Positions 17,613 through 26,179 are shown, counted from the stretch's first letter. The stretch is 64,000 nucleotides of DNA from Chloroflexota bacterium (GCA_030447245.1 JAUJPG010000004.1:16843-80842); one strand, 5' to 3'. Numbers and translations are program-made. The notes: generated from the letters alone by a model not told the origin.

Positions 17613-18186
17613 ACGAGCGTCCTTCACGTTGAAGAGCTGCACGGCGGAAGCCGCGACTTTCACCATCGCCACCCGCCTGCGGGGCACCATTGTCCGCGGC
17701 GGGGTGGCGCTCTTACAAGGTCAACGAGCGTCGTGGAGTCCGGATCTGCACCCCAGCGGCAAGGCCGGCGAAGGGCCGAAAACCCGCCCGCGACCGACCC
17801 CGTGGTCATCGACGAAGCGAACATGCTCGAAGTCCTGAACTCCAACCAGCTCACCAGCCCTATCCAACCTGGCTCGCACCTGCTGAAGGTGGGCGACCCG
17901 GACTAGCTCTCGCGCGTTGGCACCGGTAAACTCCTGGCCGACCTGCTCCGAATATGAGCGCATCCCCGTCAAGCGCCTGGAACACAGCTTCCAGCGGAGT
18001 GATGGGTGCGGCATCGCCCAGAGTGCCCGATAGATCAGCGCCGGCGAGTTGCCGCGCGTCGGCGAAGACGTCCGCGACTGTCTCCTTGCTGTCGGCCCAC
18101 GAGCCAGCCTCGGGCTCGTCATCCTCGGGGGCCGACACCAAACCGTGACGCTCCAGCCCACGTTGATTCCTCAGATAGTCGCCTTG

Positions 18187-18231
18187 GACGGATACACGGG
18201 CACGGCCCACGCGCTGGCGGACGGCGCGCAT
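18187..18231 (-). pseudogene. short dtd-like N-terminal remnant
   Basis: MRAVRQRVGRARVSV at the start of track ORF 17860..18231 nearly matches the Dtd N-terminus [15 protein letters not shown]; similarity is lost after about 15 residues. Confidence 0.3.
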
Positions 18232-18344
18232 CGGTAGGCGGCCGGTCCGAGCACGTCCGAGGATCTCCCGTCCGCCGAGTCATGCCGCCAGGCACCGCCC
18301 ACCGCGCCCTCAGCGTCAACACGTCGACGGCGCGAACCTGGATG

Positions 18345-18413
18345 CGTTCTAGACACAACAGAGCGGCGATACTGCTCCGATGGGCCGACCAGGACGCGGT
18401 CGCGAGCCGATAG
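18345..18413. repeat. about 70-bp repeat, copy 1 (second copy at 24471..24546)
   Basis: cgttctagacacaacagagcggcg...ggccgaccaggacgcggtcgcgagccgatag versus cgttctagccacaaaagtgccgcggcg...gaccgaccaggacgtggtggcc; both encode ...LRW(A/T)DQD(A/V)VAS. Confidence 0.5.
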
Positions 18414-19468
18414 CATGGGACCGCTACGCCGCTCCCACGACCGGGCGGGTGGCGAACGGCCGTGGAGGGTTGACCGTGAAGAAGCGTGTCGCCGGTCCGC
18501 TCGAAGCCATCACCGCGCACCAAGCCGCACTCCCGCAGGGAGGAGATATGGCCTACGGCGTCGCCTTCCTCTGCGCGGTGATGGCGGTGCGGGATGCCTG
18601 GCTGCGTCACGGTGCGCGGGTGGCCGTTGAGGACCTGGTCGGGCGTGCCCTGCGTGACGGAATGCGCCGCGCGACCGACGGGTCTACCTGGCGGCGTGCG
18701 CCCCGCGAAGCTCAGCCACGGCGGCCGTGGCCCCGTCTCGATCGAGAGGATCGGGACAGGGGACAGGGCGGCCGCCCAGGATGTCGCCGTCGATGCCCCG
18801 GGCGAGAACGCCCCGTCGCGGATGCATGAAGCAGGAGCCGTTCGACGGGCCGAAGACGGCGATGCCGCCTTGCGGGCCGTCGTCAGCGAGGTTGCCGAGC
18901 CGTGTGCGCGTCAGCGCCTCGCACGCGCTTCCCTAAAAGTTGTCGTTGTCGTCATCGTTGTCGTTGTCGCCCCCGTTGTCGCCGTGGTCCTCATTGTCGC
19001 CGTGGTTGTCGTTGTCACCGCCACCACCGCCGCCATTGCCAACTCCTCGGCGCCTCGTACGCACCGATGTCGCAGATCGCCATCGCGTTGCCGTCGCCGT
19101 CGATCGGCCGGGAGACGGCGCGCTGGTGGACCGACTCGAAGATGACCGGGTCGCAGGCGTCGATCGCCACGCTGCCGGCAGCAGCGCGTGGGTCTGGGTC
19201 AGCCCGCCGTTGCTCGCGAGCGGGCCGAGCTTCGGGTCGCCACTCGACACGTCGCCGGTCGCGCTCAGACCGCAGGACGCGTCGGTCGAGAGGTTGTGGC
19301 CGCCCTACTGGTAGCCCGAGATGGCCTCGATGAAGCAGTCGGTCGGGATGCCGCGCCATGCCGTTGGCGAAGATGGTGTTGCGGGGCACCGAGGTGCCCT
19401 GGAGAGCCGCGAGGTTGCCGCCGCGCGTGTCCTCGACGTGGCGGCCAGGGTGGCGTTAGAGAGCACTA

Positions 19469-19482
19469 GTGGGTCAGTTCTC
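19469..19482. repeat. left terminal inverted repeat of the IS630-family element
   Basis: gtgggtcagttctc preceded by TA. Confidence 0.6.
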
Positions 19483-19558
19483 GCGAGGGTTGCCAAACGG
19501 GTGTGTGCCTGGCATGCTCTGGCGTCCGTTCGGTCGAGCGAGCGGACGGAGGTCAGCC

Positions 19559-20572
19559 ATGGCACGTCCCCAGAAGGCGCGGCTCCGGCCCCTGGCCGAG
19601 ACCGAGCGGACCGCCCTCGACCAGATCACCCGCGCGGGCAGCGAGCGCGCCGACCGCGTTGCGCGGGCCAAGGCCGTGCTGGCGGTGGCCGCGGCCGATC
19701 TTTCACCGCGGCGGCGCAGGCCGCCGGGCGCGTCGGTCGGGCGACGCGGTGGCCCAACTGGTCGCCCGCTTCAATACGGAAGGGCCGACGGCGCTGGAGC
19801 CGCGCCAGGGCGGTGGCCGCGGCGGTGTACGACGCGCCACCCGCGACCGCATCCTGCAGGGTTACCGGCATACGCCGACCGGGAGCGGGACGGCACCGCC
19901 ACCTGGTCGCTGACCACGGTGCAGCGGGCGCTCCGCGCGGCGCCGGACGGGCTGCCCCGGGTGAGCACCAAGACCATTCTGTATACCCTCTGGGATGCTG
20001 GGTATACCTGGCAGCAGAGTCGCACGTGGTGCCAGACGGGACCGGTCGTACGTCAAGCGGAAGGCGGGACCGGTCACGGTCACCGACGCCGACGCCACCC
20101 CAAAGAGCTGATCGAGCGGGCGTACGCGCTCGGGGAGCAGGGCGGGGTGGCGGTCTGGTGCCAGGATGAAGCTGGCCCCTACCAGGCCATCCACAGCCCG
20201 GTCCGTCCTGGCAGCCGCTGTGGGGCAGCCCACCGCCCGGCCGCACGCGTACATCCGCGGGGGCACGGGCCAAGCGAAGGACGCTGTTCCGGCCCGCCAC
20301 GGGCGAGTGCGCGCGAGCCCGCGGCGACGGCCCCAACGCCGTGCTCCATCCCTGGCTCAAGGCGGGAGCTGGTGGCGATCCTGGCGGCCCTGCCGGGCGG
20401 ACGCGGCCGCGGCGGAGGCCACGCGGGCTTGCTGGGAGGCCTGGCAGGCAGGCTTGCGCGAGCGCTTCACCTTGCCGGCCGACCTGCCGCCCCTGCGAGC
20501 GTTGCTCATCTGGGACAACCTGACCGCCACAAGAGCGAGGACCTGGTGCTCTGGCTGTGCGCCCACGGGTGA
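19559..20572 (+). pseudogene. IS630-family transposase, multiply frameshifted
   Basis: MARPQKARLRPLAETERTALDQI (HTH), WSLTTVQRALR, VAVWCQDEAGPYQ and ALLIWDNLTATKSEDLVLWL segments are distributed over three overlapping + frames (track ORFs 19321, 19469, 19503, 20166). Confidence 0.65.
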
Positions 20573-24546: not shown

Positions 24547-24642
24547 AGGGGGTCGGGTGCGCGCCTGATCAGCGCCCGTTCAAGCCCGGCGACCACAGAC
24601 GCCGGGGCGCGTCCCTCTTCTGCCTCGCTGTGGCGATGTACG

Positions 24643-25170
24643 ATGCCACTCTCGCGAAATGAGGCCCAACTGCTGGCGAGGGCCGCAAAGGCCGCGGCTG
24701 ATGCGAAACGGCTGGTCGATCCAGCCCTTTCCGTCGCACTCGCCGCTCTCAAGCGGGACAAGGATCTCGGCGGGCAAGCAGCTAGGGTCAGGAACAGGAA
24801 GCGGAACGAGGATGCCTTGGGTGACGTGGGTGTCCTCGCCGAAGCGTTGGCGGAGGGGGGTCCCGTATCGAGCGCCGCCCGGTCCGCTGAGGCTCCGTCG
24901 CCTCCGGAAGCAACTGCCGACGACGGCCCCCGCCGCGATCGCAAGCCGCGCACTGTCGGTTCAGAAGCCAAGAAGCGGGTCCGCCAGCGAGACTTCAGCA
25001 GCCAACTCTTCAGACGCAGGCCGATCGAAGTGATGGACTCGATCCTCGACCTGGGCAAACGCTTGACAAAGTGCGGGGTAGCCGCGGCGATGGGCATACA
25101 CAGAGGGACCCTTGGCTTGTACCTGAGCGACGAGCAGATCGACTGGGATCAGGCGAAGCTCGACGCGTAG
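24643..25170 (+). CDS. hypothetical Ala-rich protein with possible C-terminal helix-turn-helix
   Basis: Open frame with lower GC3 than neighbours; C-terminal ILDLGKRLTKCGVAAAMGIHRGTLGLYL is HTH-like; no family recognised. Confidence 0.35.
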   Translation: MPLSRNEAQLLARAAKAAADAKRLVDPALSVALAALKRDKDLGGQAARVRNRKRNEDALGDVGVLAEALAEGGPVSSAARSAEAPSPPEATADDGPRRDRKPRTVGSEAKKRVRQRDFSSQLFRRRPIEVMDSILDLGKRLTKCGVAAAMGIHRGTLGLYLSDEQIDWDQAKLDA

Positions 25171-25276
25171 GAGAGAAGGGCAAGGCGCCGGGCCCTCGAG
25201 CGGCAGAGACAATCTGAGCGGCGATCCTAACAATCGTCGATCATCGATGGAATCCAGCAAGTTCCGACGTTCTTGA

Positions 25277-25313
25277 GGGGCATCCTGGTCTTGAAGGGAG
25301 ACCAGGATGCCCC
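25277..25313 (+). promoter_or_regulatory. perfect 14-bp inverted repeat with 9-nt loop that encloses the RBS and start codon of the RHH gene
   Basis: ggggcatcctggtc-ttgaaggga-gaccaggatgcccc; GGGAG lies in the loop and ATG 25307 in the 3' arm. Confidence 0.6.
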
Positions 25314-25522
25314 GATTCCTTCTTGAGGTCTCGGACCCCGCCTTTGAACGCCTGACCAAAGAGGCCGGGCGGTATCGGCGGTCGCTCAAGGACCAAGCGG
25401 CGTGGCTCCTCGGGGGCGTGCTGCTGGCCGCCGACGCGCCAGCGCGGGAGCTCGAGAAGATTGGCGCGTCGGCGGGTGTGAGTGCAGCTGACCAGCTAGG
25501 GGCTGGTTATGCCGCGGGGTGA
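25307..25522 (+). CDS. small ribbon-helix-helix-like DNA-binding protein (candidate antitoxin)
   Basis: 71 aa; PRFLLEVSDPAFERLTKEAGRYRRSLKDQAAWLL is consistent with a beta-strand plus two helices as in Arc/CopG/ParD proteins. Confidence 0.45.
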   Translation: MPRFLLEVSDPAFERLTKEAGRYRRSLKDQAAWLLGGVLLAADAPARELEKIGASAGVSAADQLGAGYAAG

Positions 25523-25681
25523 GCATCCACTGCCGCTCACGGTGCGGCGTGAGCTCCTCACGGAACTTTACCGTGTGCTTCTATGCCCCCCGGTCGAGGA
25601 GCAGGATGCGGTAAAGCCGCGTCACCGGGTGGACGACGCGGACCGCACAATTGTGATCCTGGACAGCGGGGCGAGCGAGTA
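25508..25681 (+). CDS. short overlapping ORF downstream of the RHH gene (possible toxin remnant)
   Basis: ATG at about 25508 overlaps the RHH stop; 57 codons, MPRGEHPLPLTVRRELLTELYRVLL...; not in the ORF track because under 60 aa. Confidence 0.2.
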
Positions 25682-26179
25682 GCCGTGTCGAACATCATCG
25701 CTATCCGACGTCCGCTCCACTCCCAGCCCGAAGTCGGTCAGGTCGTGCAGTTTCTCCGCTGTCGGTGCGAACGGCACGTCGTCGTGCTGGAGGGGGCGAG
25801 CGGCTCGATTTGACGACGTGGCGCCACAAGGTCTGGCGAGCGGGCGATCCCTCCCGCGACCGGTACCTGATCTAGATGGGCCCGCCACCCGCATCAGATG
25901 ACGTTGTGGCTAGAACCTCGACGGCGTGGACTCACAGCGCTGGATGTGCACCCATCAGATGCCTCCTCCACGGGGCAAGGGCGTCGGGGGTCTCGGCCGG
26001 GGTTGGCCAGCGCGCTCGCGCCCGCGGCCCACGGGCAAGCCGGGTCAGAGCCTCGGTTCTGTCCTGCCTTCAACCGCTCCAACCGCTGCTCGGCGGGCAG
26101 CGTGGTCCTGCTGCTCCCGCCACCGGCAGGCTATCGTCCCAGCGTCCGCAACGATCTCCGGCGGACGAAAGGAGCCGAC

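Follow-up and report, generated by a model that had tools for sequence, protein, structure and literature searches.

Clusters of pseudogenes that result from relaxed selection with a deletional bias are well known from Mycobacterium leprae, from Rickettsia and from recent symbionts, and decaying bacterial pseudogenes are expected to show a bias towards deletions. A region with this general appearance was analysed in a Chloroflexota bacterium, within a stretch of 64,000 nt (GCA_030447245.1, JAUJPG010000004.1:16843-80842) that is hereafter called the window. The region (17700-26150) lies between a GH2 gene and a cupin gene and contains pieces of genes of a CSLREA/choice-of-anchor-Q family, of a rare family designated family-A, of a beta-propeller protein with BNR repeats and of Uma2 proteins, together with an IS630-family insertion sequence (IS). 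It is probably a graveyard of redundant accessory genes that decayed recently and in a lineage-specific way; it would not be a functioning system, and a foreign origin of its core is not demonstrable.

Coding capacity was measured from open frames, taken from stop to stop, that span 80 codons or more and have a coding-like GC content at the third codon position (GC3), a crude gauge of codon periodicity. Such frames covered 11% of the region versus 87% of the remaining 55.5 kb of the window, in agreement with the sequence-only reading that about 8.5 kb here hold almost no intact genes. The window has a GC content of approximately 68% and is dense in genes, with open frames of up to 869 codons outside the region. 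The flanks are intact, with a dtd gene (15091-15540) and the GH2 gene (15813-17690) on one side and the cupin gene, which ends at 26557, on the other. In the interval from GH2 to cupin all recognisable genes are broken. Pfam searches with the raw open reading frames (ORFs) and with three stop-masked minus-strand frames yielded almost no matches, because frameshifts disrupt the profiles. An Rfam search of positions 15000-28000 gave nothing at E ≤ 1.

Self-comparison of the window revealed an inverted match of 69-74% nucleotide identity between 19054-24356 and 45558-47298, the latter in a second locus located 21 kb away. In that locus a family-A gene (44934-45977, 347 aa) is followed after 38 nt by a CSLREA/choice-of-anchor-Q gene (46015-47376, 453 aa), and then by a Kelch gene and a second family-A gene. 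Judged by these alignments, the region is a decayed minus-strand copy of the family-A/CSLREA cassette.

A CSLREA pseudogene split by IS630 had been proposed for the region, and this was borne out by the alignment to the paralogue and by inverted repeats with TA flanks. When the IS630 element was excised in silico, frameshift-aware alignment of the pseudogene (copy A) to residues 7-453 of the intact paralogue gave 59% identity. The alignment required 13 frameshifts, of which 1-2 lie at the excision joint, and crosses a single in-frame stop, at 19305; the start codon ahead of the signal peptide is missing. The stitched product passed both NF041518 (69.4 bits) and TIGR04214 (27.2 bits), each with a cutoff of 25. 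As a control, three homologues (63-67% identity) were aligned to the intact CSLREA gene, and no frameshift was obtained. A 5' stub of a second copy (copy B) was recognised by a DNA match of 74% between 23858-24138 and 46055-45776, which continues past the stop of family-A and reaches the beginning of the CSLREA paralogue; the peptide match of this stub by itself is weak (E = 0.13). Asp/Asn/His-rich tails (DNDNHDNDND...) were observed at the CSLREA C-termini, at 18925-19022 and 47310-47376. A Kelch remnant downstream of the CSLREA pseudogene was also considered and was rejected, its alignment score being no better than that of shuffled queries.

The IS630 element is bounded by the terminal inverted repeats GTGGGTCAGTTCTC, identical in 14/14 nt (19469-19482 and 20888-20901), and has TA on either side (19467-68 and 20903-04), an additional C occupying 20902. 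The stitched transposase matched NF033545 with E = 1e-23 and 84.3 bits, the curated cutoff being 100; once 15 frame changes are allowed for, 396 aa of it align with an IS630 homologue from Deinococcus at 57% identity. A single frame change falls where the homologue also changes frame, and approximately 14 are disabling; on account of these extra frameshifts, the copy is considered unable to move by itself. In the copy on the Deinococcus sp. QL22 plasmid (L163; NZ_CP097150.1, 498644-499842) the change of frame falls in an A-rich stretch (AEAKKK), and an internal stop is present as well. The closest plasmid homologues are annotated as two ORFs. These sequences suggest a programmed frameshift in this IS630 subgroup.

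The beta-propeller gene could be compared with an intact counterpart from a related strain. With the stitched BNR product as query, an intact orthologue of 385 aa (P0126) was found on Logan contig L164, from another metagenome (run SRR22405819), and against it the predicted frameshifted BNR-repeat gene was verified. P0126 scored 29.8 bits against Pfam BNR (PF02012, cutoff 27), and the window copy by itself reached only E = 0.0015. The upstream region and the first 144 codons are near-identical to L164; the coding part differs by 2.8% mismatches and is free of indels. Thereafter positions 551-876 of L164 (326 nt) are lost, and a 129-nt duplicate of the preceding blade stands in their place. In the next 224 nt there are 13 mismatches and 2 insertions, along with 15 deletions that measure 1-6 nt each and remove 35 nt altogether. 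The loss, the duplication and the multi-base deletions are not base-calling errors. The cluster of small deletions (22590-22780, aligned with L164 877-1100) directly adjoins the junction of the 326-nt loss and the 129-nt duplication, and it may represent a single complex repair event instead of slow decay. The decay is regarded as recent and lineage-specific because the related strain retains the BNR gene intact; this course also fits a variable locus.

Two Uma2 remnants had been noted, and both are real: they share 80% nucleotide identity with each other, and stitched copy 2 reached 49.6 bits against Pfam Uma2. That copy covers profile positions 92-151 of 172, and the N-terminal half is absent. 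Each remnant abuts an upstream element of about 100 nt, which is followed by a BNR start, belonging to the full gene in one case and to a stub in the other. On L164, only a Uma2 tail is present, downstream of BNR. As the related strain likewise carries just the tail, the fragment is older than the split of the two strains.

Family-A copy B aligned with residues 186-347 of the 347-residue paralogue at 50-53% identity, with no frameshift and one stop. The sequence-only reading had listed a truncated family-A gene. The defect was confirmed, in the form of the in-frame TAG codon; truncation is doubtful, and although the N-terminal 185 residues of the 347-aa paralogue are lacking, the copy may be naturally short, since a homologue of 164 aa was found elsewhere. 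Logan contig L162 is identical to 23774-25211 (100%), TAG included, and gene calling on that contig yields two pieces, of 106 and 46 aa. The GC content of the pseudogene is 0.659 versus 0.663 in the paralogue. A 3' stub of a further family-A gene is continuous with a 70% match to 45907-46813 and is situated just upstream of the CSLREA pseudogene. The simplest interpretation of the stubs would be a larger tandem array that collapsed through deletions. The CSLREA, family-A and BNR stubs and the two upstream-element copies of the region are additions to the inventory of the sequence-only reading.

Only 18 representatives of family-A were recovered at E ≤ 1e-3 among 1.84 billion, which makes the family very rare. 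No model of Pfam, NCBIfam or PHROG matched it, and NCBIfam gave no DNRLRE hit at E ≤ 0.01 for either protein. Its members in the window (44934-45977, 49511-50203 and 23937-24482) display two conserved Cys pairs, and longer homologues have a CARDB-like domain in front. The predicted structure is a beta-sandwich closest, at a level regarded as fold similarity, to a DNRLRE-domain carbohydrate-binding module. Taken with the beta-helix and propeller proteins, this model suggests that the cassette encodes secreted glycan-binding or glycan-processing proteins.

The first two cassette genes at 44.9-47.4 kb are intact, and other members of the second locus are damaged. In the Kelch gene (47424-48500) an in-frame stop (48195-48197) takes the place of a Tyr of the repeat consensus; Kelch repeats persist past this stop, and then the frame shifts. 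By its sequence, this gene is probably a pseudogene too. ADDDENKKKDK-like stretches were seen after the signal peptides of the Kelch protein (47540-47570) and of family-A homologues. Single homologues of 390-422 aa run across both a CARDB-like ORF of 169 aa and a family-A ORF of 230 aa (48971-50203), with two frameshifts approximately 83 nt apart, near 49439 and 49522; on this comparison the two ORFs are parts of one split gene, the second family-A gene of the locus. Since the Kelch gene and the second family-A gene are also damaged, erosion hits a class of accessory secreted-protein genes rather than one island. The pairing of family-A with CSLREA is not universal, since on contig L165 a CSLREA homologue stands without a family-A gene beside it.

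An upstream element is shared between the two loci. Its core, CCCGTACT-N5-CCCGTACT, was found 4 times in the window versus 0.01 expected. Two direct CCCGTACT half-sites, 13 nt apart, are accompanied by an inverted half-site, which gives CCCCGTACT/AGTACGGGG. The element is located 60-100 nt before four secreted-protein starts (family-A, the CARDB-like ORF, BNR and the BNR stub), and it also precedes the intact BNR orthologue on L164. The motif was absent from all 165 loci fetched (0/165). The covariation term for an RNA structure was essentially zero over the four sequences, and for this reason the element looks like a protein-binding site, not an RNA. A STAND/LuxR-type regulator (42167-44542) adjoins one of the copies. 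A further reading, offered tentatively and rather unlikely as a whole, is that both loci mark lineage-restricted, co-regulated genes for secreted glycan-binding proteins (the DNRLRE-like family-A module, the CSLREA beta-helix protein and the beta-propeller), with an undescribed ~95-nt operator-like element of three CCCGTACT half-sites and a deletion-rich signature. Within it, the putative operator would perhaps be read by the neighbouring regulator, and the finding that small deletions equal or exceed substitutions may result from the repair of breaks in a desert-dwelling member of the Chloroflexota.

The graveyard reading, which is the preferred one, would imply the following course. Originally, one or two copies of a secreted cassette would have been present, comprising family-A, CSLREA/choice-of-anchor-Q beta-helix and beta-propeller proteins. 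Selection would have been relaxed since the copies were redundant or dispensable. An IS630 element inserted at a TA within one CSLREA gene. The second CSLREA gene and one family-A gene were largely lost, and stubs are all that remains of them. The propeller gene lost 326 nt and gained the 129-nt duplication, a Tyr codon became TAG in the remaining family-A gene, and about 1 small indel per 100 nt gathered in the CSLREA gene and in IS630. These lesions are visible in the DNA; the order in which they are given, and the relaxation of selection as their cause, are conjectural. The second dtd copy and the two Uma2 fragments would be older debris. The coordinates of all the features are collected in Table 1.

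Table 1. Features of the region between the GH2 and cupin genes, and further copies of the upstream-element core, in window coordinates
Feature	Position	Strand	Basis or remark
dtd pseudogene, second decayed copy	17826-18231	-	Frameshift-aware alignment to the window's intact Dtd (15091-15540)
64-nt direct repeat, left copy	18340-18403	.	77-78% identical to right copy
CSLREA/choice-of-anchor-Q pseudogene copy A, 3' part	18930-19468	-	Paralogue alignment
IS630-family insertion sequence, inactivated	19469-20902	+	Inverted repeats, TA flanks, transposase homology
CSLREA/choice-of-anchor-Q pseudogene copy A, 5' part	20905-21760	-	Paralogue alignment; motif GNCSLRGAIIEAN readable in the sequence
Family-A 3' stub, last ~30 codons, two in-frame stops and a frameshift	~21798-21890	-	74% nucleotide identity to 23943-24023
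Second BNR start stub, signal-peptide codons (~20 codons), fused to family-A stub	~21895-21950	-	Upstream-region alignment; coordinates approximate
Upstream element copy 1	21982-22090	-	Core CCCGTACT-N5-CCCGTACT at 22061-22081(-); three-region alignment
Uma2 C-terminal remnant copy 1	22093-22306	+	80% nucleotide identity to 23615-23818, E = 4e-46; repeat families D3, D4, D7
BNR (Asp-box beta-propeller) pseudogene	22414-23339	-	Compared with P0126 on Logan contig L164
Upstream element copy 2, before BNR gene	23380-23482	-	Core at 23453-23473(-)
Uma2 C-terminal remnant copy 2, at least 2 frameshifts	23483-23828	+	Pfam Uma2 E = 2.6e-6 on raw ORF
CSLREA 5' stub copy B, ~25 signal-peptide codons, cut by Uma2 remnant	~23830-23905	-	DNA match
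Family-A copy B	23937-24482	-	In-frame TAG 24141-24143 where the paralogue has Tyr
64-nt direct repeat, right copy	24466-24529	.	77-78% identical to left copy
175-aa ORF, may or may not be a gene	24643-25170	+	Orphan; weak codon periodicity
Perfect 16-bp hairpin, 5-nt loop	25277-25313	+	3' arm holds the start codon of the 71-aa ORF
71-aa ORF, read as RHH from the sequence alone	25307-25522	+	No family match
Further upstream-element cores	44813-44833, 48918-48938	+	Each inside a ~95-nt conserved block

The margins of the region contain features of other kinds. At the GH2 side, a dtd-like N-terminal remnant had been described; the dtd homology held, and the restriction to the N-terminus did not, the pseudogene being nearly full-length (residues 1-132). 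It is 39% identical to Dtd over these residues, with 4 frameshifts and an alignment score of 92 versus 31±4 for shuffled queries. The stitched product gave E = 1.5e-4 and 22.6 bits with Tyr_Deacylase (Pfam cutoff 25), and 22 bits with TIGR00256 (NCBIfam cutoff 101.5).

A pair of 70-bp repeats had also been reported and is present as 64-nt direct repeats. Of the 15 differences between the copies, 9 fall in one codon phase, and this concentration suggests that the repeats are a relic of coding sequence. No convincing extension of the homology was obtained, and a tblastx self-comparison returned mostly GC-rich low-complexity noise. At the cupin side, the 175-aa ORF matched only itself among 5.8 billion proteins, and family searches with it were empty; its GC content at codon positions 1/2/3 is 0.70/0.51/0.74, which amounts to weak codon periodicity. 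The assignment of a small RHH gene was unsupported, given that the 71-aa ORF had no match in Pfam, NCBIfam, PHROGs or the PDB. A single-sequence model of this ORF shows one long helix (pLDDT 72), and being a monomer model it cannot show the beta-sheet of a dimeric RHH protein.

Several observations weigh against decay as the explanation. In the 3' part of BNR, 17 indels stand against 13 mismatches in 224 nt, an unusually high ratio, and the IS630 transposase has approximately 14 disabling frameshifts and zero stop codons between perfect inverted repeats. The corrected codon-position GC of CSLREA copy A (0.63/0.52/0.92) is unchanged with respect to the paralogue (0.63/0.51/0.92), which would imply either very recent decay or an artefact. 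Codon-position GC is underpowered for telling age from artefact, for the 5-19% neutral substitution expected to accompany 13 indels would move GC2 and GC3 by an amount smaller than the error of sampling. No independent assembly covers 18.9-23.8 kb, and exact-protein look-ups for the frameshifted core returned nothing beyond the source contig. The 64-nt direct repeats, of unexplained origin, bracket the decayed block of 6.1 kb. Finally, among the collections searched through GH2, no close relative with the same flanks was found, the best ones (72-74% identity) being distributed over several phyla.

The abundance of indels, the near-invisible decay by substitution and the lack of an independent contig would be expected if the genes were intact in the organism and the 1-2-nt frameshifts were consensus errors in a poorly covered, strain-variable, GC-rich stretch; the affected part is indeed the most GC-rich of the window. 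This explanation is considered unlikely. The other 55 kb of the window have a normal density of open frames. Neither the 326-nt loss, the 129-nt duplication and the deletions of 4-9 nt, nor the IS insertion, the lost start and the nonsense codons are errors of base calling. The frameshift sites lie outside long homopolymers and comprise insertions and deletions mixed, and family-A copy B has 0 frameshifts in 546 nt, where about 5 would be expected at the neighbouring density. Independent sequence is available for other parts of the window: contigs of run SRR24765285 match 13812-15841, 23774-25211 and 49869-51467 at 99.94-100%, and the family-A TAG is thus reproduced at 100% identity in an Illumina NovaSeq contig. 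This run is an Illumina NovaSeq data set from hyperarid desert soil of the Qaidam Basin, and the genomes of the project were assembled with MEGAHIT (PMC12624003); the window's contig probably derives from this project too. As 18.9-23.8 kb is without an independent assembly, some of the small indels there may be erroneous.

It was also considered whether the region is a horizontally acquired island, now under erosion, whose insertion separated GH2 from the cupin gene. The GC content of IS630 peaks at 0.748 (z = +4.4) and that of the Uma2-BNR module (22-24 kb) at 0.73 (z = +3.3), above everything else in the window (maximum outside the region 0.715), and these two are the only compositional outliers of the region. 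The claimed GC dip, at 24.5-26 kb, was not significant (0.646-0.654, z = -1.6 to -2.1; minimum outside 0.638). The closest relatives of GH2 (about 63-74% identity) are scattered over Chloroflexota, Acidobacteriota, Planctomycetota, Myxococcota and others, with no neighbours in common (loci L002-L161); Chloroflexota, Sphaerobacteraceae and Thermomicrobiales genomes are among the best (68-74%), and several other phyla score similarly. In a Herpetosiphonaceae locus (L012), a CSLREA gene adjoins GH2. An island would also accommodate the dtd pseudogene that lies across GH2 from the intact dtd, hinting at an old insertion or duplication, as well as the bracketing by direct repeats and the orphan ORFs with weak codon bias at 24.6-25.5 kb.

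The features that define an integrative island were, however, lacking: no tRNA was found in the window, no integrase or recombinase domain was found in the three minus-strand frames scanned whole nor in the ORFs tested, and the flanking repeats are only 64 nt long and 77% identical. In GC content, the CSLREA (0.68-0.69 versus 0.689) and family-A pseudogenes agree with the resident paralogues, the cluster has the resident upstream element, and a Uma2 tail adjoins the BNR gene in the related strain too. An eroding island is quite unlikely. Because the GC and codon GC values agree, the upstream element is shared and no tRNA or recombinase was found, the core is read as resident paralogues and not as an import. 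The sequence-only reading had seen a horizontally acquired or hypervariable locus under erosion. Erosion was upheld and a variable locus is compatible with the data, but native GC content and the shared upstream element speak against horizontal acquisition. A contingency locus, in which secreted-protein genes are switched by reversible frameshifts, would suit the secreted or surface-type products, the frequent frameshifts and the compensating pair in the second family-A gene, but is hardly credible with a dozen frameshifts per gene instead of one, all away from simple-sequence repeats, and with large deletions, stubs and an IS insertion that are irreversible.

The pseudogene cluster is thus a case of ordinary gene decay, well delimited, with minor leads only. 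For annotation it means that about 8 kb which gene callers fill with spurious ORFs (4 on record for the source contig) consist of pseudogenes with recognisable parent families. For biology, it provides a dated snapshot of a desert soil bacterium shedding spare secreted-protein genes, and neutral sequence in which the indel-rich, deletion-biased mutation pattern of the organism can be read. The modest leads are the rare carbohydrate-binding-like family and the shared upstream element.

The components can be compared with described counterparts. Like other members of the IS630/Tc1-mariner group, the IS has short inverted repeats, TA flanks and a two-frame layout as in the Deinococcus homologue, and its stitched transposase shows homology to the DDE type at a score below the curated cutoff; unlike an intact IS630, it bears approximately 14 extra frameshifts, and its right-hand TA is offset by one base. 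The stitched CSLREA product resembles CSLREA/choice-of-anchor-Q proteins (TIGR04214, NF041518), passing both models, but this copy is a pseudogene; its homologues are secreted beta-helix proteins that are common in Chloroflexota. The DNRLRE module of PDB 8WAB binds chondroitin sulfate, and family-A, a putative glycan binder, is only 12% identical to it. In the case of Uma2 (PF05685, putative restriction-endonuclease-like), only C-terminal parts are found here, and these are frameshifted. As in the pseudogenes of M. leprae, Rickettsia and symbionts, the region combines several lesions per gene, an excess of deletions over insertions (15 versus 2 in BNR), an IS insertion and stubs. It differs from them in its unusually high ratio of indels to substitutions, and in that decay is limited to accessory secreted-protein clusters of a densely coding window, which indicates that the genome is not in general reduction.

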